Part shown: positions 1,519 to 24,642 of the stretch, in pieces | Position numbering within the stretch: the first letter of the stretch is position 1 | How the letters are laid out: every line of letters begins with the position of its first letter | Source: Magnetococcales bacterium | Lineage (GTDB): Bacteria; Pseudomonadota; Magnetococcia; Magnetococcales; JADGCH01 | Direction: 5' to 3' | Length of the DNA stretch: 64,000 nt | Assembly: GCA_015229115.1 (NCBI GenBank) | Contig: JADGCH010000008.1 | Location: forward strand, 11,405-75,404 | The notes under the pieces: model-generated | What the model was told of the DNA's origin: nothing | The model's input: only the letters and a program-made list of their open reading frames with translations | Databases searched by the model: none | Position numbers and translations under genes: made by a program

Positions 1519-1527
1519 GATTCATGG

Positions 1528-1920
1528 TCAATGCTGGGAAAGAGCGCGCAGACCGCCTGCGCTCCATAAGCCGAGCACTGTCATAAATAGTGAACCCAAC
1601 AGATGCAGCAGGGCCGTCCCCACCCCCCACAGATAGCGGCCCTGCAGCAGCAGGGTGACCACCTCGGCGGAAAAAGTGGAGAAAGTGGTCAAGCCACCCA
1701 AAAATCCGGTCACCACAAACAGACGCACCTCAGCTGGCCACTGTGGTTGCTGCGCCAGCAGGGCCATAGCGACACCGATCAGATAGCCCCCAACCAGATT
1801 GGCCGTCAGCGTCCCGAGCGGCACAGGCTGCGTGAGCGGGTTCAACCAGCTGCTGAGCCCCCAGCGCAACCAAGCACCGCAGGATGCGCCGGCGGCGACT
1901 GCGGCAAATGCTGGCAGCAC
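1528..1920 (-). CDS. crcB: Fluoride ion channel CrcB/FluC
   Basis: Contains the hallmark GFLGGLTTFSTFSAE motif and 4 TM segments. The ORF track starts at 2007 (159 aa). The in-frame GTG at 1920 gives the typical length of about 130 aa, with the N-terminal AAGASCGAWLRW (GG.lGa..Ry-like) motif about 10 residues from the start. Confidence 0.85.
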   Translation of the reverse strand: MLPAFAAVAAGASCGAWLRWGLSSWLNPLTQPVPLGTLTANLVGGYLIGVAMALLAQQPQWPAEVRLFVVTGFLGGLTTFSTFSAEVVTLLLQGRYLWGVGTALLHLLGSLFMTVLGLWSAGGLRALSQH

Positions 1921-2054
1921 ATCGATCGATGCCCTGGCTGTCACAACCGGATCCGAACTCACTCCACACCCTACCTTCTTCCGCACCCTGCCTCTCTTGG
2001 GCATCATACGTTACCACAATCCTGTCGTGCAAGCGATCCGGGAGGATATTTTGA

Positions 2055-2084
2055 TTGAAAATAGCCATGGCTCTGTACTATACT
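2055..2084 (+). promoter_or_regulatory. Candidate sigma-70 promoter for the Rpn-like gene
   Basis: TTGAAA (2055-2060), an 18-nt spacer, then TATACT (2079-2084), about 40 nt upstream of GTG 2127. This is a motif match only. Confidence 0.3.
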
Positions 2085-2126
2085 CCATGATAGATGTATT
2101 GTTTCCTCAGCTATGGATGAACAGCC

Positions 2127-3150: not shown

Positions 3151-6100
3151 ATGCCTACCTCTTTTCAATACTCCCTCAACGGTGGTTCAACGACAACCGG
3201 TGATGATGTTACACCGATCATTGGCGTAACTGCCGATGACACAGTTACCATTATCAGTGATACAGGGACAGTCTCGATCTCTGAGATTGAAGTTTTTATA
3301 GGCAACGTCAATGTTGAGACGGTCACCCTGCTGACCAGTGGTATACTGTCTATCAGTGAGGTGGACCAGCTGGTCAGTGATAGCGGTGCTACCGATACCA
3401 TCACCCTGCTGACAGGCGGCATGGTAGCCATCTCCTCCATCGATTCCCTCATCGGTAGCAGTGATGACGATACCGTTACCCTGCTCACCAGTAGTAGCCT
3501 TTACGCCGATGTGGTGGAAACATTCATCAGCAGTAGCGGCGCCACCGATACGGTAACCCTGGTCGCTGGCGGTTTGGTAGCGGTGTCAGAGATCGACTCC
3601 ATCGTCGGTAGTCCATCCTATCTGGAAACCGTGCTACTGCTGACCAACAGTGACCTGTTCCTGTCGGATATTGACTCCCTGATTGGCAGCACCGGCTCTG
3701 ACTTGGTGACCCTGCTCACCAGCGGCCTGTTGTCAATCAGCGAGGTCGACCAAGTGGTCAGCGGCAACAGTGCCACCGATACCATCACCCTGTTGACCAG
3801 TCATGAACTGTCCATCAGCAACATCGATTCGATTCTGAGCATCGGTGATGCTGTCGATACCGTTACCCTGATGACCGGTGGCGTGGTATCGCTCGCTTTG
3901 GTCGACTCTCTTATCGGCAGTAGCGGTGACGACACCGCCATCCTGATCACCAGTGGCTCCATTTGCGCTGATGTGGTCGAAACATTCATCAGCAGCAGTG
4001 GCGCCGTCGATACCGTCACGCTGGTCGCTGGTGGTCTGGTCACGGTGTCAAACATCGACTCCATCATCGGCAGTCTATCTTACGCTGATACGGTCATGTT
4101 GCTGACCAGTAGCACTGTTGTCATGGGTGAGATCGACAACATGAACAGCATCGACAGTCTCATCAGTCTGGCTGACGTCACCGATACCGTTACCTTGATG
4201 GCACCTGGATCGTTAGCAGCATCGGGCATTGACTCCATCATCAGCAACACTGGTAATAACCTGATCACCCTGCTGACCAGCGGCATGGTGTCGGTCAGTA
4301 ACGTTGATGGCCTGGACAGCAGCAGCGGCAGCACCGATACCGTCACCCTGCTCACCAGTGCCGCCGTGGCGGTCCAGAATATCGAATCTATGCTGAGTAG
4401 CATAGGGGCTACCGATACCGTCAATCTGATCAGCAGTGGCCAGTTGTTTGTTAGTGACATCGATCAGATCAACAGCAGTGCTGGTTGTACCGATACCGTT
4501 ACCCTACTCACCAGTAGCGCTGTTTTATTCTCCCATGTCGACTCGGTGGTCAGCGTTGATGGTGCTACCGATACCATCACCGTGCTGATGGGCAGTGCAC
4601 TGGCTGCATCGGGCATCGACTCGATCATCGGTAACTACGTATCTGAACAGGTCACCCTGCTGACCAGTGGGGCTTTGTTCTCCAGCGATGTTGATACACT
4701 GATCAGCGTTGACGGTGCTACTGATACCATTACGCTGGTGGCTAGCAATAATCTATCTGCTTCTGGTGTCGACTCCCTCATCGGCAGCGTCGGTGATGAG
4801 AACGTCTCCCTGCTGACCAGCGGCATTCTCTCCGTCAGCAACATTGGCACTCTGATCGGCAGCACTGGTACAACTGACAGCGTCACCCTGCTCACCAGTA
4901 GCAATCTATTTGAAAAATGGCTCGACACCCTGATCAGCAGCAGCGGCAGTACCGATACCGTGACGTTACTGACCGGCGGAAAGGTCATCGTCTCCGGGAT
5001 CGATTCTCTCATCGGCAGTGGCCTGAACGACTCTGTCGTGTTGCTTACCAGCGGCTCCCTGAGCCTTGATGTCGTTGAGACGCTGATCAGCAGCTCTGGC
5101 ACGACCGATACCGTCACACTGGTGGCCGGCGGTAACATGGCGGTGTCGGGCATCGACTCGATCGTTGGCTACAGCTATTACGACCAAGTCACCCTGCTTA
5201 CTGGCAGCGAGGTGTCTGTCAGCAACATCGACGAAATCATCAGCAGCTACGGCATCACCGATACCGTTGTTCTGCTCACCAGCAGTGCTGTATCCCTCCT
5301 CAGAATTGATTCCATTAGCAGTAGCAGTGGCGCAACCGATACGGTGACCCTGATGGCTGGTGGTCACGTAACAACCTCCAACATCGATTCCATTGCTGGC
5401 ACCTCGGCGTGGGAACACCTTACCCTGCTGACCAGTGGTAGTTTATCGATCGGTGAGATCGACCGATTGAGTAGCCATTCCGGTGTTACCGATACCATCA
5501 CCCTGCTGACCAGCAGCCTAGCAATCACGAGTGGCATTGACTCGATCCTCAGCACAGCCAATGCTCATGATACGGTGGTCCTGTTAACCAGCAGCATGAT
5601 CGCTGTTGCCAATGTCGACTCGCTTATCAGCGTTGACCACAGTGCTGACGCTCTCTCTTTTGATAGCGCCGTTGAATATACCACCGGTACCACCGGCTCC
5701 GGACCCATTTCGGTTTGCCTGGATGATGTCAATCGTGATGGCCATCCTGATATACTGGTAGCCAACTATTACACGGCCAGTGTCTCGGTATTGCTCAATA
5801 ATGGTAATGGTACTTTTGCTGCCAAAACTGAATACACCGTCGGTACCAACCCGCTCTCAGTTCATGCAGCCGATGTCAATGGAGATGGTTATCCGGACCT
5901 GCTGGCAGCTAATCAGACCTCCGGTGATGTTTCAGTCCTGCTCAACAATGGCAACGGTAGCTTTGCCAGCCATCAACCCTATACCACAGGGACTGCTCCT
6001 TTTTCAATTAGTTCAGGTGATCTGGATCGTGACGGGGATCTGGATCTGCTGGTCGCCAACAGCACTTCCGGTAATGTTTCGGTTCTGTTCAATCAGGGTG

Positions 6101-9100
6101 ATGGCACCTTTCCAACCAAAACAGATTACTCCACCAGCGGTGCCAATGGCGGTGCTACGGGCGTAGCCGTTGCCGATGTCAACCGTGATGGCTGGCTGGA
6201 TATCCTGGTCACCAGCACTGCTCCCGACACGGTTGCGGTGCTGCTCAACAATGGTAGTGGCAGCTTCCCCACCCAAACTGACTATGGCACGGGCGTTGAT
6301 CCACGTTCGATCCACATCGCCGATCTGGATGGAGATGACTGGCCCGATATTCTGACCGCCAACTCGACGGGCAACACTGTTTCGGTGTTGCGCAACAACG
6401 GCGATGGCACCTTTGCCGCTCCAAATGACCTCCTTAGTGGTCCTGCTCCCATGTCAGTCAGTGTCGCCGATGTGGATAGCGATGGTCTCCCCGATATCAT
6501 CGTCAACAATGCAGGTTCTACCACACTCTCGGTGCTGCACAACAACGGTGATGGGACCTTTGCCAGCAAGGTTGACTATACCAGTGGGTCCGGTCCTTAT
6601 TGGGTTAACGCAGCCGATGTCAATGGAGATGGTCGGCTTGATCTGGTCGCGGTTAATCATGGTTCTGCCAGTGTTTCGGTGCTGCTCAATACCAGCCAGT
6701 TTGTTGCCACCCCAGGCAACAGCGGTGCTACCGATACCGTTATCCTGCTCACCAGCAGCGCCTTATCCATCGCTGGCATTGACTCCATCCTGAGCACTGC
6801 TGGTGCTACCGATACCGTTACCCTGCTCGCCAGTACCACCCTGTCCATTAGCTGTGTTGACTCCATCCTGAGCAGTAGTAGCGTTGTTGATACCGTGCGA
6901 TTACTGACCAGCAGCCACGTTTTCGTGTCCGATGTGGATAAGCTTATCAGCTTGGTTGGTGTCACCGATACCATCTCCCTGCTCGCCAGTGGCATCCTGT
7001 CCGCCAGCTGTGTTGACTCCATCCTGGGTAGCGGTGTCACCCTTGATACGGTAAGCCTGCTGACCAGCGGAGCCCTGTTCATCAGCTCCATCGACAAGTT
7101 GGTCAGTGTGAACGATGCTACCGATACCGTCACCCTGCTGACCAGCAGCTCCATAGTGACCAGTGGCGTTGATTCGATCCTCAGTGTCACGGGCGCTACC
7201 GATACGGTGCGGTTACTGACCAGCCACAACCTGACCGTGTCCGGTGTTGATCGAATCATCAGCCTGGTGGGCGTTACCGATACCGTCACCCTGCTGACCA
7301 GCAGCAAGCTGTTTGTCTCCAATGTCGATTCGATCATCAGTGGCAGTGGCGCCACCGATGTTGTCAAGTTGCTATTACCGTCCAGCATCACGGTCGATGG
7401 CATTGACTCGATCATCGGTTCAACCGGTGCCGACACCGTTACGGTGATCAGCGATGCGGCTGTGATGATCCAAGCCGGCTACGGGGCCGATCAGATCAAT
7501 CTGCTGTCGGGTCACACGACGGCCACCACCATCGTCTATGCACTGCCAAGCGATAACGACACCATCACCAACTTTGCCGCTGGCGTCGATAAAATCCGTT
7601 TAAGAACCGGACCCACCGGCGGTGTTCCGGTCACTATGTCGATGAGTGGCACAGCAACCACACCCGGCACGGTTTGGCTGGATGTCAATAACGACGCCAT
7701 CGGCGACGTCACCCTGACGTTGGTCAACATGACTGGCTCCCTGACGGCTAGCGATTTCATCATCACCAGTTCGCAGTCCGTCACCTTTTCAACGGCTACC
7801 AACCATGCTACGGGATCAACGCCTCAAGGGGTCACCAGCGCTGATTTCAATGGCGATGGCGTGGCCGATCTGGCTGTGACCAACGGAGGCAGTGGTACAG
7901 TATCGGTGCTGCTGGGCACTGGATCGGGCAACTTCGCCAATGCTACCAGTCATACGGTCGGCACCAGCCCCTATTCAGTCGCCAGTGCCGATTTCAACCG
8001 AGATGGAATCATGGATCTGGCCGTTGCCAATTCCGGCAGCAACAACATCTCCATACTGATCGGTACTGGGGCGGGTGGTTTCAGCACGGCATCCCCTTTT
8101 GCTACCGGTACCGTACCCATGACGATTCTTGTCGCCGACTTCAACAGCGACGGACTCATCGATCTCGCCACTGCCAACCACAATGGCGGTAGTGATAACC
8201 TGTCCGTATTGCTAGGTAACGGTTCAGGCAGCTTTGCCACAGCCGTTCCCTACACCGCTGGCAGTTACTCGACCGCTGTCACCAGCGCTGATTTCAATAG
8301 CGACGGTCTGTTGGACATCGCCTGCACCAACTTCATGAGCAACGACATTTCCATCCTGCTGGGCGATGGATCGGGCGGCTTTACAGCCTCTGGTAGTCCT
8401 CTTAGCAGTGCTGCCCGCCCGCGTTCGATCATCAGTGCCGACTTGAACGGCGATGGCGTGGTCGATCTCGCCACGGCCAATTACGATGGCAACAACGTCT
8501 CGGTGTTTCTGGGTACCGGATCGGGCAGCTTTGCCAATGCCACCCACCATACCACGGGCACTAGCCCGCGTGAGATTATTACAGACGATTTCAATAACGA
8601 TGGCATCGCTGATCTAGCCACCGCCAACTATGGCAGCAACAACCTGTCGGTACTGCTGGGAACCGGGTTAGGCGGCTTCCTGACTGCCGTCAGTTATGCC
8701 GTAGGCGTGCTACCGACGGCGATCGTTGGCGCCGACCTGAATGGCGATGGCGTGGCCGATCTGGCGGTCACCAATGAGTCCAACAACAACGTGTCAGTAC
8801 TGCTGACACAACCTCTGTCAGCACCCACTGCCCTCGATCTGGATGCTGCCGATGATACCGGCACCAATAACGACAACAGCACCACCCAAGCCAGCAATCT
8901 GACTATTAGCGGTACTGGTGGCATAGCTGGCACGATCCTGTCGCTGTTTGATGATCAGGACAACGACAATCTGATCGACAGTGGAGAATTGCTGGTCACG
9001 GCCAGCATCACTGGCCAGGCCTGGAGCGCTGATATCAGCCTGACAACAGGCACCCATACCATCAAGGCCATCCAGACAGACAGCGCCGGAGCCAACAGCC

Positions 9101-12100
9101 ACGCTTCGACGGCGTTGACCCTCACCATTGTTAACTCCTCATCGACCTTGATCGGTACCAGCGGCAGTACCGATACCGTCACCATCCTGACCAGTGGCGC
9201 ACTCTATGCCACCGAGGTCGATGTGTTATTGAGTGGCAGCAGCAGTACCGATACTGTCACCCTGCTCACCAGTGGCTCCCTGGCTATCTCGAAAATCGAT
9301 TCCATCCTCAGCGCAGCAGGAGTGACCGATACTGTCACCCTGATGTCTGGCGGCATCGTCACCGTTTCCGGTGTCGACCAAGTGATTGGTTCGACTCCAT
9401 CTAACATCAACGATGCCCTGTCCAGCACCTGGACGACCGTCGATACCGGCTATTCTTACTACTACGAGGTGCACGCTGGCGATATCAATAATGATGGCAC
9501 CATCGAACTGGTGGGCGGCGATTCCAGCACGGGCGATCTGGCCTATTTCACCCAGACCACAGCACGTACCCTGACCTATAATGCCATCACCTACACCTCC
9601 ACCTACAAGGGGGCCATCTATGGCTCCGATCTGGCCGATCTCAATAACGACGGCCTGCTCGATTTTATCTCCGCCGGATCCAATGGCGCCTCAACCAGCA
9701 ATAACAGCGTCTTTCAGTTCAGCGGTGGCACCTACAGCTTCATCAACAGTACCTATGGTTACAGCGCCATCGCACTCTATGGCCAGGATGCGACTCATCT
9801 GGATGTTAACGGCGATGGCTACCAGGAGGTGCTTTGGGCCGGCAATACCGATCTGACCTATGGCCTCAACACCACGGCCTCGACCGGTGCATCGCCAACC
9901 TTCACCGTCAGCAACGTCACCAGTACCACCGCCTATCCCAACAAGCTGGCTACTGGCGACTTCGATGGCGACGGCGATCTGGATGTGGTCGCCGATCACA
10001 ACAGCTCAACGGCCGTCACGGTCTTTTATGATACCGGCAGCAGTCTGGTGGCCCAGGCCGGCCCAACCTTGCCGTTCAACAGTGGTTATTACATCGCCAC
10101 CGGTGACATCAATGGGGACGGCTATTGCGATGCCATCTTTGGCAACGTGGCCAGTAATGGCAATTATGCCGTCTCCCTCGGTAGCAATACCGGATTGCAG
10201 GCAGCCTCTTCCTACAACGTCTCGGCCATCGGAGCCAACAATATCCTCGGTACGGCTCTGGGTGATCTGGATAATGATGGCAAGCTCGATCTGGTACTGT
10301 CCAATCTCAATGCAGTCTTTTACCTGACCGGTAACGGTGACGGTACTTTCACCTACCGGAAGCAAATTGCTGCCAGTGGTTCCGTCTCGGTATCGATTGC
10401 CGATGTGGACCAGGATGGGCTGAAAGATATTGTCACTGCCGGCGGTGTCATTCGGGTTTATTTCCAGAATGCTGTGGGTAGCAACAGTGTCAGTTACGAT
10501 ACCGTCAATCTGATCAGCAACAGCTCGGTGATGCTGACACAGGTGGAAAGCGCCCTGGGTTCTACTGGAGCGGAAAGCGTTACGCTGATGACCAGTGGCA
10601 CCCTGATGGTATCAACGGTCGATACCCTTTTCAGCACTGCTGGTGCTACCGATACCATCACCCTGCTCACCAGCAGTTCATTGGCCGTTTCGTCAGTCGA
10701 CTCGGTTCTCAGCAGCAGTGGTGCGACCGATACGGTCACGCTGCTGACCAGTAGTCTGTTGACGGCATCGTTGGTTGATTCAATCCTCAGTGCTGCTGGT
10801 GCGACCGATACGGTCACTCTGCTGACCAGCGGCAGCTTGTTCCTATCGGACCTTGACTCAATCATTGGTAGCAGCGGCACAACGGATACCGTGACGCTGC
10901 TGAATCAAACGGCCGTCCTGTCCAATATCCATACGGTCATTGGCTCAACGGGTATCGATACTATTGTACTGCTGTCAACCCCAACACTCACGTATACCAG
11001 CCTGTCCAATATCGAAACGGTGATCGGTACAGCATCGCTCGACACGATCAAACTGTTGACTTCCAGCTCTATTGCCGTATTCAGCATCGATACGGTGATC
11101 AAATCGTCGGCCGGTACAGATACCGTAACGTTATTGTCCAACATCGCCACGTTGCATGGCATTGAAACAGTCATCGGTACCGCCAGCAGCGATACGGTCA
11201 TATTTAGTTTCGCATGGGATGTTAAACTATCCCAGGTTGATTCGATCACCGGCCATACCGGTATTGACACCATCACCCTGCTGACTAGTAGCCAACTGAT
11301 AGCCAGCGGCATCGAGTCACTGTCCAGTAACACTGGGGCTACCGATACCGTCACCCTGCTCACCAGTGGATCATTGATTGTTGGATCGATTGACTCACTG
11401 ATCAGCAGCAGTGGTGCGACCGATACCATCACGCTGTTGTCAACGGGCGTGACTCTGGGAGCCAGCGGCGTTGACTCGATCATCGGTGGAACCGGTGTGG
11501 ATACGGTTACACTGCTGACCAGTGGCAATCTGGCCTACATGACCAGTATCGAATCCGTGATCAGCGGCAGTGGGGCCACCGATACCGTCACCCTGCTCAC
11601 CAGCAGTCTGTTGACCACTTCCGGTATCGACTCCATCGTTAGCAGTGCTGGTGTTACAGATACCGTCACTCTGCTAACCAGTAGCACCCTGATCACTTCC
11701 GGTATCGATTCCATCGTTAGTGCTAGCGGGGCTACCGACACAGTGACCCTGCTCACCAGCGCTGCCATAGCCGTTAGTGCCATCGACTCCATTGTTGGTA
11801 GCAGCGGGGTGGTGGATACCACCACCCTGCTCACCAGTGGGGCTCTCTACATGAATGGCACCCACTCAGTCATCAGTGGCAGTGGACTGACCGATACCAT
11901 TACCCTGACCCATGCCGGGGCTTATCTGGCCATCTCAGGTGTTGACTCGGTGGTGGGTGGCAGTGGCGTTGACACCGTCACCCTGCTCACCAGCGGCACT
12001 GTTGTCATCAGCCATGTCGATAGCCTGATTGGTTCAGCAGGTGACGACACCGTGATCGTGCTGGATAGCAGCACGATCGTCATGATGAATGTCGAGAGTG

Positions 12101-15100
12101 TCACTTACGTCAATATCAGTGTTCCGTCGGCGCCAACCGATCTGGTCCTTGCTACTGACGATGACAATGGTCGTGACAATACGGACCGCATCACCAGTCA
12201 AACCAGCAACCTAACCATCAGCGGTGAGGGTGGCGACGTTGGAATGACGCTGACTCTATTTGACGATCAGGATAGCGATGATGTTGTTGACAGCGGTGAA
12301 ACGCTGATCACCTTCGTCGTGACCAGCAGCAGCTGGAGCGGCGATATCGCCTTGGCAGCAGGCACCCATAACGTTAAAGCCCTGCAAAGCAATGTGAGTG
12401 GTAACAGTGAGGCGACGTCAGCGCTGGTCATCACCGTCGATATCACTGCACCAACCACGCCCACCGCGCTTGAGCTGGCCGCAGCCGATGACAGTGGTCT
12501 TTCGGACAGCGATCGTATCACCAGCCAGACCAGCAGCCTGACCATTAGCGGTAGTGGTGGCGAAGTGGGTAACGTGCTGGTGCTGTTGGACAATGAACAA
12601 CCCTTGGCCACCCTGACCGTTAGCGATACGCTCTGGAGCATTGATGTTGACCTGACCCCTGGTACCCATGCCCTAACAGCTGTCCAAGCCAACGCCTCTG
12701 TCAGTAGCGATGCGTCAACGGTGTTGATGGTGACGGTCGATACCACGACGCCAGCGATGGTCACCGGTATTGATTTATCAGCCGAGGACGACAGTGGTTG
12801 GTCCTCTAGCGACAACATCACACGCTACACCAGCGCCTTGACCCTCAGCGGCCAGGGTGATGCAGCAGCACAATTATGGCTGTTCGACGATCTGGACGGC
12901 AGCGATATCGCTGATGAGAGTGAGTATCTGGCCACCGTTCTGGTCACGGGCAGTCTGTGGCAGACCGATGTTGCGCTGACCGTTGGCACGCACAGCCTCA
13001 AAGCCATTCAAACCAGTGCGGCTGGCATAAGCAGCCTGCCTTCGCTGCCCCTGACGGTCACCGTAGCTCCGACCATCACGCCTGTTACCCCGACCGATCT
13101 TGATCTTGCCGCCAGCGATGATAGTGGTACAGCCCAGGATGACCATATAACCACCCAGACGACAGCTCTGACCATCAGCGGCCAGGGCGGCACTGCTGGT
13201 CAGATGCTGCTGTTGTTCGATGACAGTGGAGACGGTCATGAACTGCTTGCCACCCTGATCGTGACGGACACAAGCTGGAGCACCGATATCAGCCTCGGTG
13301 ACGGCGTTCACGACATTCGGGCCATTCAGATGGACATGGTCGGCCATAGTAGCCCAGCCTCATCCGCCCTTACCCTGACCATCGACGGGATTATTGCCAG
13401 CGCAACCCCAACCTATCTTGCCCTGGCCACGTCCGACGACAGCGGATGGCTGAACAACGATAACCTGACCTCCCGAAGTGCTGTCACCATCAGCGGCGAC
13501 GGCGCCCTGGCCAGTGGCCAGATGCTGCTGTTCGACCAGGGCTCAACGGTGGCAACCCTCACGTTGACCGGCAGCAGCTGGAGCAGCACACTCAGCCTGG
13601 CGGAAGGCATTCATACCATCCAGGCGCTGCAGTATAATGCCGCAGGTAGCAGCCCGATCTCGTCAGCCCTGACTGTGACGGTCGATAGCACACCACCAAC
13701 CGAGCCATCATCGCTCGATCTGGCCAGCGAGGATGATGTGGGTCTGTCCAACAGTGACAACCTCACCAATCAGGTCAGTGGCCTGACCATCAGCGGTCAG
13801 GGTGGCGAAGCAGGTGCACGGATCCTGCTGTTCGATGGCGATAGCGTCATAGCCCAGTTCGATGCTACCGGCACCAATTGGAGTGGCGATATCAACCTGG
13901 CTAGCGGCCAGCATACCATCCGGGCAGCACAACAGGACCGCGCTGGCAACACCAGTGCTCTGTCATCGGCCCTGATCCTCACCATCGATGCCACGGCAGC
14001 ACCGAACATACCTGGCTATCTCGATCTGGCCCATGAAGATGACAGTGGCTTCTCCAACAGCGATCATATCACCCGCTTCAGTAGCAACCTCACCATCCAG
14101 GGACAGGGAGGCACCGCAGGAACCACCTTGTTCCTGTTGGATAAGGATAACCAGACCCTGGCCACCACCGCTGTCACCGGCGACAGCTGGAGCGTGGACA
14201 TCAGTCTGTCGGTCGGCGCTCACACCCTGCGCGCCATGCAGCAGAATGTCGCCAGCGGCAGCAGTCCCCTGTCATCGGCCCTGACCCTCACCATCGATAA
14301 CGGTATCCCCGACGCACCGACTAACCTGATGCTGGCGGCTGACGATGACACTGGTCTGTTGGATAATGATCGCCTTACCAGCCAGAACGATGGCCTGACC
14401 ATCTCCGGCGACAATGGCGAAACTGGCGCCCATATCATCCTGATGGACGACCAGCTGGCCTTGGCGACCGTTACCGTCACAGGATCAGGCTGGAGCGGCG
14501 ATATCGATCTGACCGCCGGAACGCACACCGTCCGGGCCCTACAGCAGGATGCTGCCGGTCATGACAGTGCGCTGTCCGATCCTTTGATCATCACAGTCGA
14601 CAACTCGGCGGCACCGGCGGCACCGACCAACCTGGACCTGGATGCCACAGACGATCATGGTCTACTGGACGACGATAACGTTACCAACCAGACCAACAGC
14701 CTCACCATCAGCGGCAGTGGTGGTGAGATCGGTGCCCGCATGATTCTGCTGGATGGTACGACACCCTTGACCACGCTTGCCATGACCGAGGCCAGCTGGA
14801 GCTACGACGTCACCCTGTCAGAGGGCAGCCATGCCATTCGTGCCATCCAGAAAGATCGGGTCGGCAGCAGCAGCCCGGCCTCGGCAACGCTGTGGCTGAC
14901 CATCGATACCACCGTAGCCACCCCAACTGTGGCCCTGGCCCAGGACAGTGGCAGCAGTACCATCGACCACCTGACCTCCAATGGCACCTTGACCGTGGCG
15001 GCGATCGAAGCCGGTGCAATGGTGCAATACAGCCGGGATGGTGGCGACAGCTGGACTGAAACAGTAGCCCTGGAAGATGGCAGCCATACCATCCGGGTCC

Positions 15101-17346: not shown

Positions 17347-17369
17347 CCTATCAACAGGAGTTCGATGCT

Positions 17370-17990
17370 ATGTTAACCACTTTGACAAGTCATTATACTT
17401 TTAATGGTCAAATTATAGATTTAATCAATAATGATCCCGTTACGGTCTACGGTACCAGTGGTGATCCCAGCAATGCGACATCGACTTTCGGATCCGATGC
17501 AACCGGACCCTACTGGAGCTGGACCAGCACCAATGCCAGGGGAGGTGGCTTCACGATCGAGGCCGATCTGGCCGACAAGGGCAGTTACACCCTGGCGATG
17601 CGGTTCCGTTTCGGTGATATGAGTGGCTACCGCAAAATCATCGACTACCGCAACCGCACCACAGACGATGGGCTGTATATCCTGAATGGTTTCGTCAATT
17701 TTTATCCCCTGAACACGGGCAGTGTCGCCTATGCGGCCAACGATTTGATCGATTTGATAGCGACCAGAGATGCTTCCAGTGACTTGTTGACCATCTATCT
17801 GTCCGATGGCCATGGTGGTTATGTCAAGGCCCTGGAGATTCACGACACGACGGGAATTTCTGAGCCGTCCCTGACCAGCAACGGCTTGGCCCGGTTCGGT
17901 TTCTTTTATGATGATCTGCGCACCGGTGGCGAAGCGACCCAAAGTGGCAAGGTCTATCAGATCAGTCTCTGGGATGGCTCCCTGACAGCT
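17370..17990 (+). other. Concanavalin A-like/LamG-like N-terminal domain (tentative)
   Basis: The ...SYTLAMRFRF.....YRKIIDYRN...DDGLYILNGFVNFYP.......DLIDLIATRD....LTIYL.DG......FGFFYDD....GEATQSGKVYQISLWDGSL pattern is reminiscent of Laminin_G_3 domains. This is motif-level evidence only. Confidence 0.4.
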
Positions 17991-20900
17991 GGAACCATCA
18001 CAGGACCTGCCGTGACCAGCCTGGAACTGGATGCTGACGATGATAGTGGTCCTTCCAACAACGACCGCATCACCCTGCAGACCGAGGAGCTGACCATCAG
18101 GGGCTTTTATGCCACGGTCGGCACCAGCCTGCTGCTGTTTGATGACAGCAATGACAACGGACTGCCCGACAGTAGCGAACGCTTGGCGACTGTTCCGATC
18201 ACCGCTACCAGCTGGGGTCAGGATATCACACTGGCCCCCGGCATCCATGCTGTCAGGACCGTACCCGTCGACAGCAATGGACTGATCGCCGGCCCGGTTT
18301 CGGCAGCCCTGAGTGTGATGGTGGTCGAGTCCGATGATGGCGCCAGCGATTTAGGTATCTCCGGTCGTCTTCTGCCCGGACACTCGGTGACCGGTGTCAT
18401 CGAATCAGCCGGTGACAGCGACTGGTTTGCCATCGATCTGGCCGAAGGGGTAGCCTATGCGTTCGAACTGGAAGGAGTCGGAACATCGCAAGGGACCTTG
18501 GTTGATCCCTACCTGCAAGTCATGGATCAGGACGGTACCGCTACAACCTACAACGCCGACGTCAGCCCAACCAACAACAATGCCAGAGTGGTCTATATTC
18601 CGGCCAGTAGTGGTACCTATTATCTGGCTGCCTCCGGCTGGGGCAACAGCAGAGGAGACAATACCGGCAGTTATCGCCTGTCGGCTACCTCGATCGTACC
18701 AACAGATGATCACCCTGAAGGAACCGAGACGACGGAGAGTGTGTCGATTGGTGGTTCAGTCACCGGCAACATCGATTTTACCACGGATCAGGACTGGTTT
18801 ATTGTCGATCTGATAGCCGGAACCAACTACCGATTTGATCTGGAAGGATCTTCTACAGGACAGAGCTCCCTGTCTGATCCTTATCTGGCCCTGTGGGGCG
18901 GTGACGGTTCCGAGTTGACTTACAGCACTGATATCAATGATCTCGACAAAAATGCCAGCATCTTTTATACGCCCAGCAGCAGTGGTACCTACTATCTGTC
19001 TGCCTGGGGCTTGGACGCCAGTTTTGGTATTTACAATACCGGTCGTTACCGTTTATCGGCTGCAATTGTGCCCGTCGATGATATAGCATCTGACAGCACC
19101 ACCACTGCGACGCTGTCACTGGGAGAAGGCAAAACCGCCAGCATCGATTTTTCAGGCGATCGTGACTGGTGGGCCATCACCCTGACCGCTGGGGTCAGTT
19201 ATCGTTTCAGCCTGGAGGGGGGTCAGGCCTCGCAACAGTCTGCCCTACCGGATCCCTACCTGCAACTGCTTAACAGCGGCAGTACCGTGGTGGCCTACAA
19301 CGCCAACGTGAGCCCTGCTAACAACAACGCGGCCATCATTTATACTCCGGTTACTACGGAAACTTATTACGTTGAAGCGTCCGGATGGCATAGTGCCGTT
19401 GGTGGCTATCGTGTTACGGTCAGCGAGACCACTCCACCTGGCGATGACTACGCTGCCCATGTCACCACCACCGGTCAGCTATCGGTCCATACCCCTGTCA
19501 CCAGCAGCCTTGATTTCCCGGGAGACCAGGACTGGTTCGCCATCAGTCTGGTCGCAGGCACGACCTATCTGTTCGACCTGACCGGCACCATCCTGTCACA
19601 GGATCAGGCCACCCTGTCGGACCCCTACCTGGAACTGATCGACCGCAACGGTGATCTGGTGGCCTTCAACAAGGATATGAACGGCTCCAACAACAGCGCC
19701 AGAATTCTCTATACCGCAGACAGCAGCGATATCTTCTATCTCAATGCGGCCAGTTACGATGGTAGCCACAGCGGTAGCTACCTGTTATCAGCACGGGAGA
19801 TCGTCACAGAAGATGATTACACCTCCAATACCAGTGTCACCAGTTGGCTGTTAATCGACAAGCCGGTCAGCGACAGTCTGGGTACTCCGGAAGAGCGCCG
19901 CTGGTATGCCATCACCCTCCATGCCGGCATTCGCTACACCTTCGATCTGAAGCGCGACGACAGCTTTGAAAACGGCCTGACCGACCCTTATCTGCAACTG
20001 CTGAATGGTAGCGGTCAGCAGGTTGCCTATAACTACGATATCAGCAGCAACAATACCGACGCCAGAATCGTTTATACCGCCACACACGATGGTATCTACT
20101 ATCTGGTGCCGTGGGGTTACGGCGTGAGTACAGGCTACGGTACCGGTGATTACCGTCTGTCAGCTGCGGCTGAAGAAGGCGATACCACAGCTCCTCCCAT
20201 CCCAATCCATCTTCAGCTGGCCGCTATCGACGATACCGGTCGGTCCAACAGTGACCACATCACCCGACAAACCAGTGCACTGACCATCAGCGGCAGCGGC
20301 GGCGAGATAGGTGCCCGGTTGGTAGTGATGGATGACAATCTGCCCCTTACCACCGTTGCCGTTACAGCCACTGACTGGAGCAGTACGATCGCCCTGACAA
20401 CCGGCAGCCATGTCATCCGGGCGCTGCAAATCGATGCCGCAGGTAACAGCAGCACCCCGTCCTTGCCGTTACTGCTCACCATCGATAACGCTCCGCCACT
20501 TGCTCCATCGGCCCTGGACCTTGATCGCGATGATGACACCGGTGTCAACAGCAGCGATAACATCACCAGCCGAACCAATGGCCTGACCATCCGTGGTAGC
20601 GACGCTGAGGCCGGTGCCACACTGATTCTGTTCGATGGCACCACACCCTTGACGACGCTGGCCATCGCCACCAGTTCCTGGAGCACCGATGTCAGCCTGA
20701 AGGCCGGAACCCATACCATCCGAGCCTCACAACAGGATGCTGCTGGCAACGACAGTGTCCTTTCCGCACCGCTGACTATCACTGTTGTGGACAACAGCTC
20801 GGCCCCAGCCGCTCCGACCAGCCTTGATCTGGCTGCCGCCAACGATAGTGGCCGATCCAGCAGCGATAACATCACCCGGCAAAGCAGTGCACTGGTCATC

Positions 20901-23477
20901 AGTGGTAAGAGCGGCAAGCCTGGAGCCACACTGGTACTGTTTGACGATCGCAACGGCGACGGTTTAATCGATGGTGGTGAGGCACTGACCACCACCGGTG
21001 TCACAGCTGCAGACTGGAAAGGGACCATCAGCCTGACCTCTGGCAGTCATGAGCTGCGGGCCATCCAAACCGATGTTGCCGGTTTCAGCAGTGGCGCGTC
21101 TCTACCTCTGTCCATCACCATCGATACTCTGGCAAACCAGCCAGAAGCATTGGATCTGGACAACCGTAACGATTCCGGCCTATCGGACACGGATGGCATC
21201 ACCAACCAGACCAGTGGTCTGATGATCAGCGGTTATGGTGGTGAGACAGGAGCCTCGCTGGTACTGTTCAACGACAAGAACAGCAACGGTAGCGCCGACA
21301 GTGGCGAAGGACTGACCACACTGGCGGTGACGGGTGCAGCCTGGAGCAGCAGCGTCAATCTGGCTGCCGGCAGCTACGCCATCCGGGCCGCGCAGACCGA
21401 TCTGGCCGGCAACATCAGCAGCGCCTCTCCGTCCCTGCCAATCATCGTCGATACCAGCAAACCTGTTGCACCCACCGCGCTTGATCTGGATAGCAACGAC
21501 GATACCGGAGCCCCCAGCGACAACCTGACCAGCCAGATCAACAACCTGACCATCAGCGGCAAGGGAGGAGAAGTTGGTGGCCAGATAGTGCTGCTGGATG
21601 GAGAGATAGCCCTGACGACGGCCGACGTCAGCGCCGTAAACTGGAGCAGCGACATCAGCCTAAGCCCTGGTACACACGCCATTCGGGCGCTGCAGCGCGA
21701 TCGAGCCGGCAACAGCAGCGTGCTGTCAACCCCGCTGCTGGTTACCATCGATAACAGTTCCTCCCTGCCAGCTCCGACCGATCTTGATCTGGACAGCACA
21801 GACGACAGCGGTCGCTTCAACAGCGACAACGTTACCCGCCGTACCAGTAACCTGACCATCAGCGGCAGGGGTGGCAAGGTTACCGGCGCGACGCTGCAAC
21901 TGTTCGATGATCGTAATGGCAACCAGCGTATCGACAGCGGTGAACTGTTGACCACACTTTACACCACCGCCAGTGACTGGATGGCCGACATCAACCTGAC
22001 CATCGGCAGCCATAGCATCAAGGCACTGCAAATCGATGCAGACGACAACGGCAGCGTCGCCTCACAGCCTCTTGCTGTCACGGTTAATCCGCTGTCATCA
22101 CTACAGTTATCCCTCAATGACGGGCCGCTGTTTCTGCCGGATGAATGGGTAGTCGGTAGCGATGGCGACGATACCCTGACCTCCCTGGGCGGCAACGACG
22201 CCATCGCTGTGTCAGACGTTGAAACCCTGATCGGCCGTAGCGGCATTGAGGCCATGACCATTATCCGTGGCCACGGCACCGTAGCGGTAGCCAACATCGA
22301 ATCGCTGATCAACGAGAATGGCGCCGATACCGTCACCCTGCTGTCTGGCAGCCGCGTTGCTGTCAGTCGGGTTCAGTCGGTGGTGGGCAGTGACGACACC
22401 GATACCATCCGGATGCTGGCGGCTGCAGCGTTGTCCCTTACTGCGGTTGAGTCGATTACCGGCAGCTCGGGCAACGACACCGTCACCATCGGTAGCAGCA
22501 GTGATCTGTTCAGCTCCAGGGTTGAAACAATCCTCGGTACCGGTGGCGACGATACCCTGACCCTGATGGCCAAAGGCAACGTGGCCATCAGTCAGATCGA
22601 CTCCGTCATCGGCAGTGCCGCCATGGACACCCTGACACTGCTCACGGCCACATCCCTGGTCACCAGCCAGGTCAATACCGTCATCGGTTCCAGCGGGGCT
22701 GATACCGTCACCATGCTGGACAGCACAGCCTTACTGGTGGTGTCGGTTGACACCCTGATCGGCAGCAGCGGTACGGATCGGGTCGGCTATCTGGGCCAAG
22801 GGGCCATGGCCGTGGCCCGTATCGAAACCATAACCGGCAGCAGTGGCAACGAAACCATCAGCTTGCTGGCATCGGGTAAGTGTGCCGTGGCTGATGTCGA
22901 TACCCTGATTGGCACCACCGGCAACGACACCATCTCCCTGCTCAGTGCTGGATCAATCGCCGTAGCCTCTGTCGAGGTGGTGATTGGATCGCGCAATGGT
23001 ATCGATCGTGTCGAGATGATCAGCAGTGGTGCGTTGAGTGTGTCGCAGGTGGAAACGGTGATCGGATCAAGCGGTGACGACGTCATCACCCTGAAGGGCA
23101 AAACGGGCGTGCTGGTTACCGGTGGCGCCGGTCACGACACCATCACCGGCAGCAGTGGCAAGGACCGCTTTCGCTTTACCGGTCCAGGCACCGATACCCT
23201 CTACAACTTCGAACGCAGTCAGGATAAGCTGCTGTTTGATGGCCTGAAAACCGGTGGCGATTTTGTTTATCTGGCCGGTGCCGTGCTGACAGCGACGGGC
23301 CGGTCGCAGGCTCGTTTTGACAAGGAGACCAAGCAACTGCAAGTGGATAGCCGTGGCAGCGGCACACCCGATCTGGTGATCAACCTGCCCGGTGTTCTCT
23401 CGCTAAGCCAGGATAATTTCATCTGGACCGCACCGACTGGCAGAACGGCCCATAATGGATGGATGGCCGGCACATGA
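17370..23477 (+). CDS. Giant (2035 aa) RTX-type repeat protein with LamG-like head and PPC-domain array
   Basis: 6,108-nt uninterrupted frame. ATG 17370 lies 9 nt after AGGAG and 23 nt after the upstream stop. No signal peptide. The C-terminus is paralogous to that of the 4731-aa ORF. Confidence 0.9.
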   Translation: MLTTLTSHYTFNGQIIDLINNDPVTVYGTSGDPSNATSTFGSDATGPYWSWTSTNARGGGFTIEADLADKGSYTLAMRFRFGDMSGYRKIIDYRNRTTDDGLYILNGFVNFYPLNTGSVAYAANDLIDLIATRDASSDLLTIYLSDGHGGYVKALEIHDTTGISEPSLTSNGLARFGFFYDDLRTGGEATQSGKVYQISLWDGSLTAGTITGPAVTSLELDADDDSGPSNNDRITLQTEELTIRGFYATVGTSLLLFDDSNDNGLPDSSERLATVPITATSWGQDITLAPGIHAVRTVPVDSNGLIAGPVSAALSVMVVESDDGASDLGISGRLLPGHSVTGVIESAGDSDWFAIDLAEGVAYAFELEGVGTSQGTLVDPYLQVMDQDGTATTYNADVSPTNNNARVVYIPASSGTYYLAASGWGNSRGDNTGSYRLSATSIVPTDDHPEGTETTESVSIGGSVTGNIDFTTDQDWFIVDLIAGTNYRFDLEGSSTGQSSLSDPYLALWGGDGSELTYSTDINDLDKNASIFYTPSSSGTYYLSAWGLDASFGIYNTGRYRLSAAIVPVDDIASDSTTTATLSLGEGKTASIDFSGDRDWWAITLTAGVSYRFSLEGGQASQQSALPDPYLQLLNSGSTVVAYNANVSPANNNAAIIYTPVTTETYYVEASGWHSAVGGYRVTVSETTPPGDDYAAHVTTTGQLSVHTPVTSSLDFPGDQDWFAISLVAGTTYLFDLTGTILSQDQATLSDPYLELIDRNGDLVAFNKDMNGSNNSARILYTADSSDIFYLNAASYDGSHSGSYLLSAREIVTEDDYTSNTSVTSWLLIDKPVSDSLGTPEERRWYAITLHAGIRYTFDLKRDDSFENGLTDPYLQLLNGSGQQVAYNYDISSNNTDARIVYTATHDGIYYLVPWGYGVSTGYGTGDYRLSAAAEEGDTTAPPIPIHLQLAAIDDTGRSNSDHITRQTSALTISGSGGEIGARLVVMDDNLPLTTVAVTATDWSSTIALTTGSHVIRALQIDAAGNSSTPSLPLLLTIDNAPPLAPSALDLDRDDDTGVNSSDNITSRTNGLTIRGSDAEAGATLILFDGTTPLTTLAIATSSWSTDVSLKAGTHTIRASQQDAAGNDSVLSAPLTITVVDNSSAPAAPTSLDLAAANDSGRSSSDNITRQSSALVISGKSGKPGATLVLFDDRNGDGLIDGGEALTTTGVTAADWKGTISLTSGSHELRAIQTDVAGFSSGASLPLSITIDTLANQPEALDLDNRNDSGLSDTDGITNQTSGLMISGYGGETGASLVLFNDKNSNGSADSGEGLTTLAVTGAAWSSSVNLAAGSYAIRAAQTDLAGNISSASPSLPIIVDTSKPVAPTALDLDSNDDTGAPSDNLTSQINNLTISGKGGEVGGQIVLLDGEIALTTADVSAVNWSSDISLSPGTHAIRALQRDRAGNSSVLSTPLLVTIDNSSSLPAPTDLDLDSTDDSGRFNSDNVTRRTSNLTISGRGGKVTGATLQLFDDRNGNQRIDSGELLTTLYTTASDWMADINLTIGSHSIKALQIDADDNGSVASQPLAVTVNPLSSLQLSLNDGPLFLPDEWVVGSDGDDTLTSLGGNDAIAVSDVETLIGRSGIEAMTIIRGHGTVAVANIESLINENGADTVTLLSGSRVAVSRVQSVVGSDDTDTIRMLAAAALSLTAVESITGSSGNDTVTIGSSSDLFSSRVETILGTGGDDTLTLMAKGNVAISQIDSVIGSAAMDTLTLLTATSLVTSQVNTVIGSSGADTVTMLDSTALLVVSVDTLIGSSGTDRVGYLGQGAMAVARIETITGSSGNETISLLASGKCAVADVDTLIGTTGNDTISLLSAGSIAVASVEVVIGSRNGIDRVEMISSGALSVSQVETVIGSSGDDVITLKGKTGVLVTGGAGHDTITGSSGKDRFRFTGPGTDTLYNFERSQDKLLFDGLKTGGDFVYLAGAVLTATGRSQARFDKETKQLQVDSRGSGTPDLVINLPGVLSLSQDNFIWTAPTGRTAHNGWMAGT
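18000..18330 (+). other. Adhesin-type Ig-like domain
   Basis: SLELDADDDSGPSNNDRITLQTEELTIRG.......LLLFDD.......W.QDITLAPGIHAVR. Confidence 0.6.
18340..20165 (+). other. Five tandem pre-peptidase C-terminal (PPC)-like domains
   Basis: Five repeats of G..V.G.I.F.GD.DWFAI.L.AG..Y.F.LEG........L.DPYL.L.......V.YN.D.....NNA.I.YT....G.YYL.A........G.YRLSA, each about 120 aa. Confidence 0.7.
20185..22090 (+). other. Six tandem adhesin-type Ig-like domains
   Basis: Same L.L...DD.G.S.SD.IT.Q.S.LTISG.GGE.G consensus as the array in the upstream ORF. Confidence 0.75.
22140..23095 (+). repeat. Array of the 25-residue repeat (about 12-13 units)
   Basis: Units such as DTVTLLSGSRVAVSRVQSVVGSDDT / DTIRMLAAAALSLTAVESITGSSGN. 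Confidence 0.8.
23085..23435 (+). other. Two RTX nonapeptides plus C-terminal (T1SS-substrate-type) module
   Basis: GGAGHDTIT-GSSGKDRFRF, then DTLYNFERSQDKLLFDGLKTGGDFVYLAGAVLT..GRSQARFDKETKQLQVDSRGSGTPDLVINLPGVLSLSQDNFIW. Confidence 0.7.
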
Positions 23478-23499: not shown

Positions 23500-24642
23500 T
23501 CACTCCGGCAGTGCCTGCGACCGGTAAGTAGCCTTACGCTGCATGTCGGTGTCGGAATCCTGGTAGCGATGGGCGATGGAATCAAATTCCTGCTGTAGCA
23601 TCAGAAAAGCGTCAACAATATCAGCATCGAACTGGCTGCCCTTGCCCTTGGCGATGATCTGCACCGCCTGGGCATGCGGCATGCCCAGCTTGTAGGCACG
23701 TCGTGATACCAGAGCATCGTAGACATCGGCCACCGACATCAGTCGCGCTGACAAAGGAATGGCATCACCCGCTATGCCTTCAGGGTAACCGGTCCCGTCT
23801 ATCCTTTCATGATGGTAATAGGCAATTTCCTTGGCCATAGTGAGAAAATCGACGCTGGTGTTGAGCGTTTGCTCAGCGTGCACCATGGCGGCCCGTCCCA
23901 AGGTGGTATGGGTCTTCATGATCTCGAACTCATCCGGCTCGAAACGACCCGGTTTCAGCAGAATACGGTCGGGAATGCCCACCTTGCCAATGTCGTGCAG
24001 AGGCGCCGAACGAAACAGCATATCGATATTATGATCATTGAGAAACTCGGCGAAGCGCGGGTGCGAACGCAGGTGGAGACTCAACACTTTGACGTAGTGT
24101 TGTGTCCGGCGAATGTGATAGCCGGTGTCGGAGTCGCGCGTTTCGGCCAGAGAGGCCATGGCCAGGATGGTGACATCCTGAATATCGACTAATTCGCGCG
24201 TGCGCTGGGCTACTTCCGACTCAAGGGACTCGTTGCGCTCGCGCAAACGGTCGGCACTGATTTTAAGGGCGATCTGGTTGCTGACCCGCGCCACGACCAC
24301 GGCCGGACCGATCGGTTTACTGATGTAATCGGCTGCTCCCAGTTGCAGACCTTGCTGCTCGTCCTCTTCTTCTGACCGAGCGGTGAGAAAGATGACCGGT
24401 ATATCCCTCGTGGCCGGATCGGCCTTCAAGTGGCGACAGACGGCATAGCCATCCATATCCGGCATGACCACATCCAGCAAAATCAGATCGGGCAAAGCCT
24501 CGTGTGCCAACTGCAGGGCATCCAGGCCATTGGTGGCAATGGATAGCTCATAGTCGGGACTGAGAACAACGGCCAGAGCCTCCAGATTGCCTGGCACATC
24601 GTCGACAATCAGAATCCGGTATCTCTTCGTTGTCATAGTCAT
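23500..24642 (-). CDS. Response regulator with HD-GYP domain (c-di-GMP phosphodiesterase, RpfG family)
   Basis: REC domain (RILIVDD ... LILLDVVMPDMDG ... PVIFLTA ... DYISKP) followed by HD-GYP motifs (APLHDIGKVGIPD ... HHERIDGTGYPEG). Its ATG overlaps the upstream stop (ATGA at 24639-24642). Confidence 0.9.
   Translation of the reverse strand: MTMTTKRYRILIVDDVPGNLEALAVVLSPDYELSIATNGLDALQLAHEALPDLILLDVVMPDMDGYAVCRHLKADPATRDIPVIFLTARSEEEDEQQGLQLGAADYISKPIGPAVVVARVSNQIALKISADRLRERNESLESEVAQRTRELVDIQDVTILAMASLAETRDSDTGYHIRRTQHYVKVLSLHLRSHPRFAEFLNDHNIDMLFRSAPLHDIGKVGIPDRILLKPGRFEPDEFEIMKTHTTLGRAAMVHAEQTLNTSVDFLTMAKEIAYYHHERIDGTGYPEGIAGDAIPLSARLMSVADVYDALVSRRAYKLGMPHAQAVQIIAKGKGSQFDADIVDAFLMLQQEFDSIAHRYQDSDTDMQRKATYRSQALPE

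Follow-up and report, generated by a model that had tools for sequence, protein, structure and literature searches.

The window analysed here, a 64,000-nucleotide stretch of a metagenome-assembled genome (MAG) of a Magnetococcales bacterium (assembly GCA_015229115.1, contig JADGCH010000008.1, positions 11,405 to 75,404 of the forward strand), carries two adjacent giant genes whose products, proteins 1 and 2, end in the same repeat-rich C-terminal cassette. The questions addressed below are what these proteins are built of, how they would leave the cell and what they might do outside it. The features that define the pair, in window coordinates, are listed first.

3151-17346, + strand: gene 1, ATG start, encoding protein 1 of 4,731 amino acids (aa), ~478 kDa, isoelectric point (pI) 4.05 (open reading frame (ORF) list, translation, Pfam)
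17356-17360, + strand: AGGAG ribosome-binding site, 9 nt 5' of the gene 2 ATG, within the intergenic gap
17370-23477, + strand: gene 2, ATG start, encoding protein 2 of 2,035 aa, pI 4.13 (ORF list, translation)

These coordinates and the 23-nt spacing between the genes (17347-17369) agree with the original prediction, which had placed two plus-strand ORFs at this distance and an AGGAG 9 nt ahead of the second start codon. Since the gap is small and holds no terminator-like site, co-transcription, also proposed earlier, is plausible, and the two genes are probably read as one unit. Both frames are uninterrupted on translation, remaining open across 14.2 kb for gene 1 and 6.1 kb for gene 2. Stop-free runs of 4,731 and 2,035 codons lie beyond chance and the domain matches span the full length, which argues that the ORFs are real. 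The internal repeat copies share just 60-83% identity at the DNA level and are thus too diverged for collapse or mis-assembly to be likely. Moreover, protein 2 equals at every residue the NCBI entry MBF0158572.1, annotated as a "pre-peptidase C-terminal domain-containing protein" of a Magnetococcales MAG and located on an 87.8-kb contig. The exact protein 1 sequence has no entry in the protein collection searched; a second Magnetococcales MAG (locus L001) encodes a counterpart to its C-terminus at 55% identity.

Both proteins are strongly acidic and poor in cysteine, with 7 Cys in protein 1 and 1 in protein 2. Their N-termini contain no Lys or Arg in residues 1-25, no RR motif and no hydrophobic core, and over stretches of 12 residues the Kyte-Doolittle value peaks at 1.7 in protein 1 and at 0.8 in protein 2. 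Judged from these properties, neither protein has a Sec or Tat signal peptide, in line with what had been predicted. The remaining anatomy was resolved with Pfam, NCBIfam and our own hidden Markov models (HMMs), the latter seeded from domain copies of proteins 1 and 2 in regions where Pfam detects those families. Protein 1 is laid out as follows.

3208-5640, + strand: repeat array I, ~32 units of a 25/26-aa repeat, aa ~20-830 (own repeat HMM)
5710-6732, + strand: FG-GAP propeller 1, 7 blades, aa 854-1194 (Pfam FG-GAP_3 and FG-GAP, blade HMM)
6718-7446, + strand: repeat array II, ~10 units, aa 1190-1432 (own repeat HMM)
7462-7794, + strand: internal cap-like module following array II, aa 1438-1548 (C-terminal-cap HMM)
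7828-8835, + strand: FG-GAP propeller 2, 7 blades, aa 1560-1895 (Pfam, blade HMM)
8824-9141, + strand: single Big_13-type immunoglobulin-like (Ig) domain, aa 1892-1997 (own HMM)
9151-9378, + strand: repeat array III, 3 units, aa 2001-2076 (own repeat HMM)
9466-10509, + strand: FG-GAP propeller 3, 7 blades, more diverged, aa 2106-2453 (blade HMM)
10555-12099, + strand: repeat array IV, ~20 units, aa 2469-2983 (own repeat HMM)
12133-15729, + strand: 12 Ig-like domains of Big_13 type, two of them shorter, aa 2995-4193 (Pfam, NCBIfam, own HMM)
15748-16821, + strand: repeat array V, ~14 units of 25 aa, opening the shared C-terminal cassette
16822-17208, + strand: two RTX (repeats-in-toxin) nonapeptides and a serralysin-type cap, aa 4558-4686 (PF08548, own cap HMM)
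17209-17343, + strand: C-terminal tail of 45 aa after the modelled cap, candidate secretion signal (alignment)

Protein 2 opens differently and closes in the same way.

17370-18011, + strand: N-terminal all-beta head, aa 1-214, candidate jelly roll of ConA/LamG type (low-confidence model)
18012-18335, + strand: Big_13 Ig domain, aa 215-322 (own HMM)
18363-20141, + strand: five PPC domains, aa 332-924 (Pfam PPC, own HMM)
20202-22097, + strand: six Big_13 Ig domains, aa 945-1576 (Pfam, NCBIfam, own HMM)
22137-23102, + strand: 25-aa repeat array, ~13 units, aa 1590-1911 (own repeat HMM)
23109-23474, + strand: two RTX nonapeptides, serralysin-type cap and 15-aa tail, aa 1914-2035 (PF08548, HemolysinCabind)

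The named families are well supported by score. In protein 1, Pfam returns 403 bits for FG-GAP_3 and 211 bits for FG-GAP, and the blade HMM resolves 21 blades that fall into three blocks of seven. Big_13 reaches 281 bits in protein 1 and 165 bits in protein 2 (cut-off 27), the Ca_tandemer model of NCBIfam reaches 59.0 and 59.3 bits, respectively (cut-off 50), and our own HMM counts 13 Big_13-like Ig domains in protein 1 and 7 in protein 2, or 20 altogether. PPC (PF04151) scores 40.1 bits in protein 2 against a cut-off of 25.9, with five copies that each score 138-146 bits under our own HMM. The inventory of three propellers, about 20 Ig domains and five PPC domains given in the original prediction is therefore borne out; the combination, which to that prediction matched no characterised adhesin, is ordinary for proteins of this sort. 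FG-GAP, Big_13/Ca_tandemer and PPC domains are typical extracellular binding or extender modules. The internal cap-like module of protein 1 scores 16.4 bits (i-E 6.7e-07) with an HMM built from four C-terminal modules, as though an array-plus-cap cassette had been fused into the interior of the protein.

The last ~480 aa of the two proteins are colinear and 48% identical, and through this cassette proteins 1 and 2 are paralogues. It consists, in order, of 13-14 units of the 25-aa repeat, two canonical RTX nonapeptides, a serralysin-type cap and a short tail. When the final ~110-130 aa are scanned alone, Peptidase_M10_C (PF08548) scores 29.1 bits in protein 1 and 29.6 bits in protein 2 against a cut-off of 20.7, which substantiates the conserved C-terminal module that had been described from the letters. 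Our own cap HMM gives 192.7 bits for the protein 1 cap, a value that serves for location only since protein 1 is among its four seeds. HemolysinCabind (cut-off 23) reaches 42 bits over the whole of protein 2 and 28 bits over its C-terminal part alone; in the tail of protein 1 it stays at 18.3 bits, under the cut-off. Each protein carries one pair of canonical nonapeptides at 9-residue spacing, all other RTX-like motifs standing at 25-aa spacing. The earlier description of both as RTX-type repeat proteins applies marginally at most, to this one pair per protein; the bulk is made of the 25-26-aa unit and is barely classical RTX. By sequence, both proteins have the properties of substrates of a type I secretion system (T1SS), namely a serralysin-type C-terminal cap, no Sec or Tat signal, acidity and scarcity of cysteine, and these hallmarks are joined by fold matches.

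Those fold matches come from an AlphaFold model of protein 2 aa 1585-2035, which has a mean pLDDT (predicted local distance difference test) of 70.9, with the cap at 85-92 and the repeat at 60-80. The model is all-beta, with ~3 strands per 25-aa unit. Its significant Foldseek matches in the PDB are nearly all T1SS substrates. Those with E <= 1e-3 comprise serralysins or alkaline proteases, RsaA and a single T1SS lipase (PML); between 1e-3 and 5e-2 there follow further PML/LipA entries, CyaA RTX and AlgE R-modules, with a few non-T1SS proteins among the weakest. The TM-scores are low, as expected where a long rod is compared with compact domains, and the matches to RsaA combine low TM-scores with probabilities of 0.14-0.72. 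The best sequence relatives of the cassette are three M10 proteases (P0001, P0002 and P0011), in which the 25-aa repeat lies between the protease and the M10_C cap, at the position of the serralysin beta-roll.

Two further giants of the same MAG, MBF0158254.1 (2,426 aa) and MBF0158942.1 (2,047 aa), end in the cassette, and it stands at the extreme C-terminus in the four paralogues and in ~30 other protein clusters. This conserved placement is the position expected of a secretion module, and the occurrence of one cassette on at least four megaproteins of one organism is as expected of a module for export and fold nucleation. At the boundary of cap and tail (window 17179-17343), protein 1 and the paralogue P0019 (MBF0158254.1) have in common the motif ATxLxRMxGTA (aa ~4678-4688), which could be the actual secretion signal. 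The motif is atypical of serralysin-type ends, and protein 2 retains a remnant of it, GWMAGT.

What, then, is the repeat that fills so much of these proteins? The unit occurs in ~90 copies and accounts for ~40% of protein 1. Five of its arrays lie in protein 1 and a single one in protein 2, and its consensus is I-x-G-S-G-x-T-D-T-V-T-L-L-T-S-G-x-L-x-V-S-x-[IV]-[DE]-S-[IL]. Every unit contains one RTX-like turn (GSxGxD; motif G[GS]xGxDxUx), and in the C-terminal arrays these motifs keep a 25-aa spacing that tightens to the canonical 9 aa just before the cap. Two acidic positions per unit are 97-100% Asp or Glu, in the window proteins and in distant relatives alike, and the inward-facing hydrophobic positions are likewise conserved in both. 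No Pfam family matches 825 aa of repeat even at E <= 10, NCBIfam returns no match on the repeat arrays, and a PDB sequence search with the repeat profile finds none. On account of the RTX-like turn, the conserved acidic and hydrophobic positions and the beta-roll position in the M10 proteases, the unit can be read as a long-period RTX derivative that would form a three-sided beta-solenoid, a reading made from a model of moderate confidence. A leucine-rich-repeat (LRR) interpretation was dropped, as the LRR and IMPDH matches of the 825-aa array in the PDB lack significance and each unit has three beta-strands in the model.

When 1.84 billion representative proteins were searched exhaustively by profile, the repeat turned up in no more than 114 clusters, and in ~30 of them an array is directly followed by the cap at the extreme C-terminus. 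Word-indexed protein searches yielded 18 matches for the cassette, 3 for array I and 1 for the head of protein 2. These protein-based counts are lower bounds, because giants with high scores are missing from the protein libraries: against the repeat profile protein 1 scores 1,557 bits and the all-repeat giants described below score 1,650-2,120 bits, and all of these are absent from both protein searches, in which protein 2 is present. Very long repetitive proteins are apparently under-represented in these protein catalogues. A scan of species-representative genomes, made with a 3-sequence alignment, located 18 loci. At nine of the 18 (L002-L009 and L011) the ORFs are 3,500-5,600 aa long and almost wholly repeat, with 82-115 double-unit matches each (~160-230 single units); their hosts are Sphaerotilus hippei, Dechloromonas, Azonexus, other Burkholderiales and an alphaproteobacterial MAG. 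The giant proteins in L002-L011 are 30-36% identical to protein 1 over 800-900 aa. The repeat is also carried by Azospirillum megaplasmids, where the gene product is annotated just as an "Ig-like domain-containing" or "calcium-binding" protein, and by a metagenomic M10 protease; relatives other than the Azospirillum plasmid genes come from unannotated contigs. The original prediction had called the 25-26-aa repeat unnamed, and it does lack a family; it is, however, not peculiar to this locus, since it builds whole giants in other Proteobacteria.

Three repeat-bearing loci (L007, L014 and L020) have T1SS genes for the ATP-binding cassette (ABC) transporter or the adaptor within 10 kb. At L007, an LssB-type ABC gene (TIGR03375, 814 bits, cut-off 693) and an HlyD adaptor gene (TIGR01843, 402 bits, cut-off 209) lie directly upstream of the repeat gene on the same strand. 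L014, from Agrobacterium vitis, has an ABC gene with a C39-like domain ~9 kb downstream, and at L020 a C39-ABC gene and an AprE-type adaptor gene lie 3-7 kb from the repeat-bearing M10 protease. Around the repeat gene of Azospirillum brasilense there are no T1SS genes within 18 kb upstream or ~5 kb downstream. A second association is found directly downstream of the giant at five loci, where a gene combines tetratricopeptide repeats (TPR) with Glyco_transf_41 (GT41, the O-GlcNAc-transferase family), sometimes two in a row, at the following positions.

L003:12096-17237, TPR-GT41
L004:14073-19669, TPR-GT41
L005:11854-14519, TPR-GT41
L006:18074-21383, TPR-GT41
L011:12008-15326, TPR-GT41

TPR-only partial ORFs occur in L008 and L014. 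The pairing of giant and TPR-GT41 gene hints that the repeat, which is rich in Ser and Thr, may be O-glycosylated in these relatives. In the window, where Pfam scans covered the 31 main ORFs of ~100 aa or longer, Glyco_transf_41 has no match. Locus L001 (Magnetococcales MAG nWRX3bin11, contig JADGCM010000066.1) holds a protein 1-like gene directly followed by two more large plus-strand ORFs, one of 1,749 aa and one of no fewer than 695 aa, and tandem giant genes therefore recur in Magnetococcales. The downstream ORF at L001 was considered as a conserved tandem partner and rejected, for it is not a homologue of protein 2.

The N-terminal head of protein 2 had been called LamG-like. Neither Pfam nor NCBIfam matches it, even at E <= 10, and its model is of low confidence (pLDDT 46.6). 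The best 50 Foldseek matches are mainly ConA-like lectin and glucanase jelly rolls, among them GH131, legume lectins and botulinum-toxin and NTNH domains, with TM-scores of just 0.3-0.45. The earlier assignment is thus echoed by the fold matches and finds no counterpart in the family searches, so that a LamG/ConA-like fold is weakly supported by this modelling. The single detectable homologue, P0132 (44% identity, 302 aa), begins with a signal peptide and ends in a sortase-type cell-wall anchor made up of an LANTG motif, a transmembrane segment and an RRR tail. A homologue with a signal peptide and a wall anchor points to an extracellular domain, and from its sequence relationship the head is probably ligand-binding.

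How do these proteins compare with known systems? The serralysins (PF08548; AprA, PrtC, serralysin) and the AlgE R-modules resemble the last ~110-130 aa of both window proteins above cut-off and are the best fold matches of the modelled cassette. The window proteins, however, have no protease or epimerase domain, and in neither does Pfam match the Peptidase_M10 catalytic domain. Serralysins have a 9-residue beta-roll, whereas the window proteins have a solenoid of 25-residue units, one canonical nonapeptide pair and extra tails after the cap. For lack of a protease domain they are not members of the serralysin family and share with it the C-terminal domain alone. The comparison with the RTX megaprotein adhesins (LapA, MpIBP, SiiE, FrhA and BapA) draws in part on the review literature (PMC3034196). 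The likeness lies in a length of several thousand residues, acidity, scarcity of cysteine and the missing signal peptide, and also in the long runs of Ca2+-type Ig extenders, the binding modules and the C-terminal RTX/secretion region. The window proteins differ in that their extenders are Big_13 domains together with the unrecognised solenoid repeat, and in that the putative binding head of protein 2 is N-terminal rather than beside the RTX region. Inspection of the N-termini found no LapA-type retention module and no LapG di-alanine site, the head of protein 2 having no di-alanine-Gly motif. The original prediction had noted that LapG/LapD-type genes are absent nearby, and indeed no GGDEF/EAL (LapD-type) and no LapG/LapD/lapEBC-like Pfam match occurs among the window ORFs, with no LapG- or LapD-specific model checked by name. 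Since neither a retention module nor a LapG-type site is seen, and the scanned window ORFs gave no Lap-like gene, the proteins are not Lap-type retained adhesins.

The all-repeat giants (Sphaerotilus hippei, Dechloromonas, Azonexus, Burkholderiales, alphaproteobacterial MAGs and Azospirillum) share the 25/26-aa unit and the type of RTX cap at the C-terminus. They are almost pure repeat, whereas in the window proteins propellers, Ig domains and PPC domains alternate with it; many of them are followed by TPR-GT41 genes, in contrast to the window. Ca2+-stabilised tandem Ig adhesins (NF033510, Ca_tandemer) are alike in that the Big_13 units of both proteins reach that model's cut-off. The Blp2-like model NF040520 gives 157 and 78 bits against a cut-off of 750, and scores so far under the cut-off indicate similarity at the level of the repeat alone.

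We consider it likely that proteins 1 and 2 are paralogous giant Ca2+-binding surface or adhesion proteins exported by a T1SS, and that they are probably made from one transcript. Both would be exported unfolded, C-terminus first, through a T1SS presumably encoded elsewhere in the genome. On reaching the outside, extracellular Ca2+ would bind the acidic turns and the cassette would fold from the cap backwards, such that the folding of cap and RTX-like solenoid would act as a ratchet that drives export and makes it irreversible. Folding of the passenger parts would then yield long rods, rigid and stiffened by Ca2+, that bear binding modules, and the proteins would serve as extracellular adhesion or matrix proteins. 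In protein 1 these parts would be the three FG-GAP propellers, the 13 Ca-type Ig domains and four further solenoid arrays; in protein 2, the jelly-roll-like head, the five PPC domains and the seven Ig domains. As there is no LapA-type N-terminal retention module, the proteins may be released or held at the surface by another interaction.

Several observations weigh against this interpretation. The proteins have no retention module and no recognisable anchor, which leaves a surface location unexplained. There are two canonical nonapeptides per protein and no more, and the HemolysinCabind score of protein 1 falls under its cut-off. Classical serralysin-type substrates stop directly after the cap, and here extra tails of 15 aa (protein 2) and ~60 aa (protein 1; 45 aa when counted from the end of the modelled cap) extend beyond it. 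Ca2+ binding by the 25-aa unit is suggested by motif similarity alone, in a repeat modelled at the pLDDT values given above. Finally, none of the 31 ORFs has a Pfam match to a T1SS ABC, an HlyD-type adaptor or TolC. The original prediction had singled out this absence of secretion genes near the pair; the absence is real and not notable. The tolC gene is usually unlinked and some RTX genes have no linked B/D genes (PMC3034196), and the Azospirillum relative is similarly placed; for these reasons missing secretion genes nearby are ordinary, not remarkable.

Must proteins that leave the cell in this manner be adhesins? The main rival explanation accepts T1SS export and holds that they are released structural or matrix proteins, which would assemble by themselves outside the cell into a layer, fibril or matrix comparable to an S-layer or sheath, with the solenoid arrays as the structural element instead of a stalk that bears binding domains and the relatives possibly O-glycosylated. 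We regard this as rather unlikely. It would suit an N-terminus with neither retention module nor anchor, protein 1 opening directly with the solenoid repeat, and it would suit relatives whose 3,500-5,600-aa proteins consist of little besides the repeat and show no evident binding domain, and five of whose giant genes (L003-L006 and L011) are directly followed by TPR-GT41 genes. One fold match of the cassette, RsaA, is itself an S-layer protein exported by a T1SS, but its probabilities and TM-scores are the low ones already described. A purely structural role is opposed by the binding modules, namely the three propellers, the five PPC domains and the head that protein 2 has in common with a wall-anchored protein; the GT41 partner, moreover, has no match among the window ORFs scanned.

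That the proteins are not T1SS cargo at all, the RTX-like C-terminus being a structural relic and the proteins intracellular or exported by another route, appears improbable. The missing T1SS genes in the window, the very few canonical nonapeptides and the non-canonical tails beyond the cap are what such an explanation can draw on. However, Sec-independent, very acidic, Cys-poor proteins made of extracellular domain types (FG-GAP, Big_13 and PPC) have no plausible cytoplasmic role, and the cassette is kept at the extreme C-terminus in four paralogues and ~30 clusters, with T1SS genes linked in relatives. It is more improbable still, and close to negligible, that the giant ORFs are an assembly artefact, through chimerism or a wrong repeat number, or decaying pseudogenes. 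Such an explanation can cite the origin of the sequence in a MAG, a protein collection that has protein 2 but no exact entry for protein 1, and the end of a YhgA-like transposase-family gene just 25 nt upstream; yet the repeat copies are too diverged in DNA for collapse, the frames stay open for 14.2 and 6.1 kb with domains intact end to end, protein 2 equals an independent NCBI gene call, and the protein 1 C-terminus has its 55%-identical counterpart in a second Magnetococcales MAG. Export by a T1SS as giant Ca2+-binding surface or adhesion proteins thus stays the interpretation we favour.

A further proposal concerns the repeat itself, and we put it forward tentatively, as somewhat less probable than not being so. 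The 25/26-aa unit would be an undescribed RTX-derived Ca2+-binding beta-solenoid that serves as a rigid stalk or fibril in T1SS megaproteins, replacing Ig extenders, across Magnetococcales and the Alpha- and Betaproteobacteria. One turn of ~25 residues may comprise one RTX-like turn and two invariant acidic residues. Such a solenoid may build the 3,500-5,600-aa proteins, and its coupling to TPR-GT41 genes in betaproteobacteria would imply O-glycosylated secreted fibrils. Protein 1, with its five arrays and internal cap-like module, may then be a chain of segments that fold independently on Ca2+.

The kind of protein met here, the giant Ca2+-binding T1SS surface protein, is known; what is new is the unrecognised 25-26-aa RTX-like repeat, a putative solenoid. 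Interest accordingly rests on the repeat family and its genomic associations, not on the domain combination or the missing local T1SS. A unit that fills ~40% of a 478-kDa protein and nearly all of several proteins of 3,500-5,600 aa goes unseen by Pfam, NCBIfam and the PDB, and large protein catalogues lack some of the proteins that consist of it. If the unit is a Ca2+-dependent solenoid related to the RTX beta-roll, the definition of RTX proteins and T1SS cargo used in genome screens would widen, and a new rigid building block for surface fibres would be added. The GT41 linkage would in that case point to glycosylated secreted fibrils, a possibility accessible in cultivable species such as Sphaerotilus hippei, Azospirillum or Agrobacterium vitis. 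For Magnetococcales, at least four paralogues with one export cassette suggest a sizeable, dedicated repertoire of secreted megaproteins.

The surroundings of the pair contain two genes of possible relevance to its expression.

2127-3125, + strand: YhgA-like gene (Transposase_31 and DUF4351), ending 25 nt 5' of gene 1
23500-24642, - strand: response regulator with an HD-GYP-type (HD_5) domain, convergent with gene 2, 22 nt between the stop codons

Upstream of gene 1 lie creA, an ORF recognised by eye as CrcB-like, and the YhgA-like transposase-family gene. The upstream ORFs at 1272-3125 were considered as remnants of a retention module and rejected, as they are the CrcB-like ORF and the YhgA-like protein and are unrelated. 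A promoter scan upstream of gene 1 gave nothing above shuffle expectation. The sole promoter-like site nearby (2055-2084), itself a match not above shuffle expectation, stands 5' of the YhgA-like gene, from where gene 1 may be read through. Downstream, the response regulator is, from its domain, likely a cyclic di-GMP phosphodiesterase and is the sole gene related to cyclic di-GMP among the ORFs scanned; a role in regulating the adhesin-like genes is conceivable. Beyond it come two-component genes in a block (24639-32535) and then gatCAB and rnf genes. Adjoining the rnf genes is an ORF of 1,392 aa (45221-49399, + strand) with a signal-peptide-like start and many hydrophobic segments, a large membrane protein for which Pfam returns no family even at E <= 10. 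Near the end of the window, an ORF of 1,106 aa (60167-63487, - strand) has both 11 Sel1 repeats and a Ser/Thr protein kinase domain and is adjoined by a TPR protein (59327-60154).

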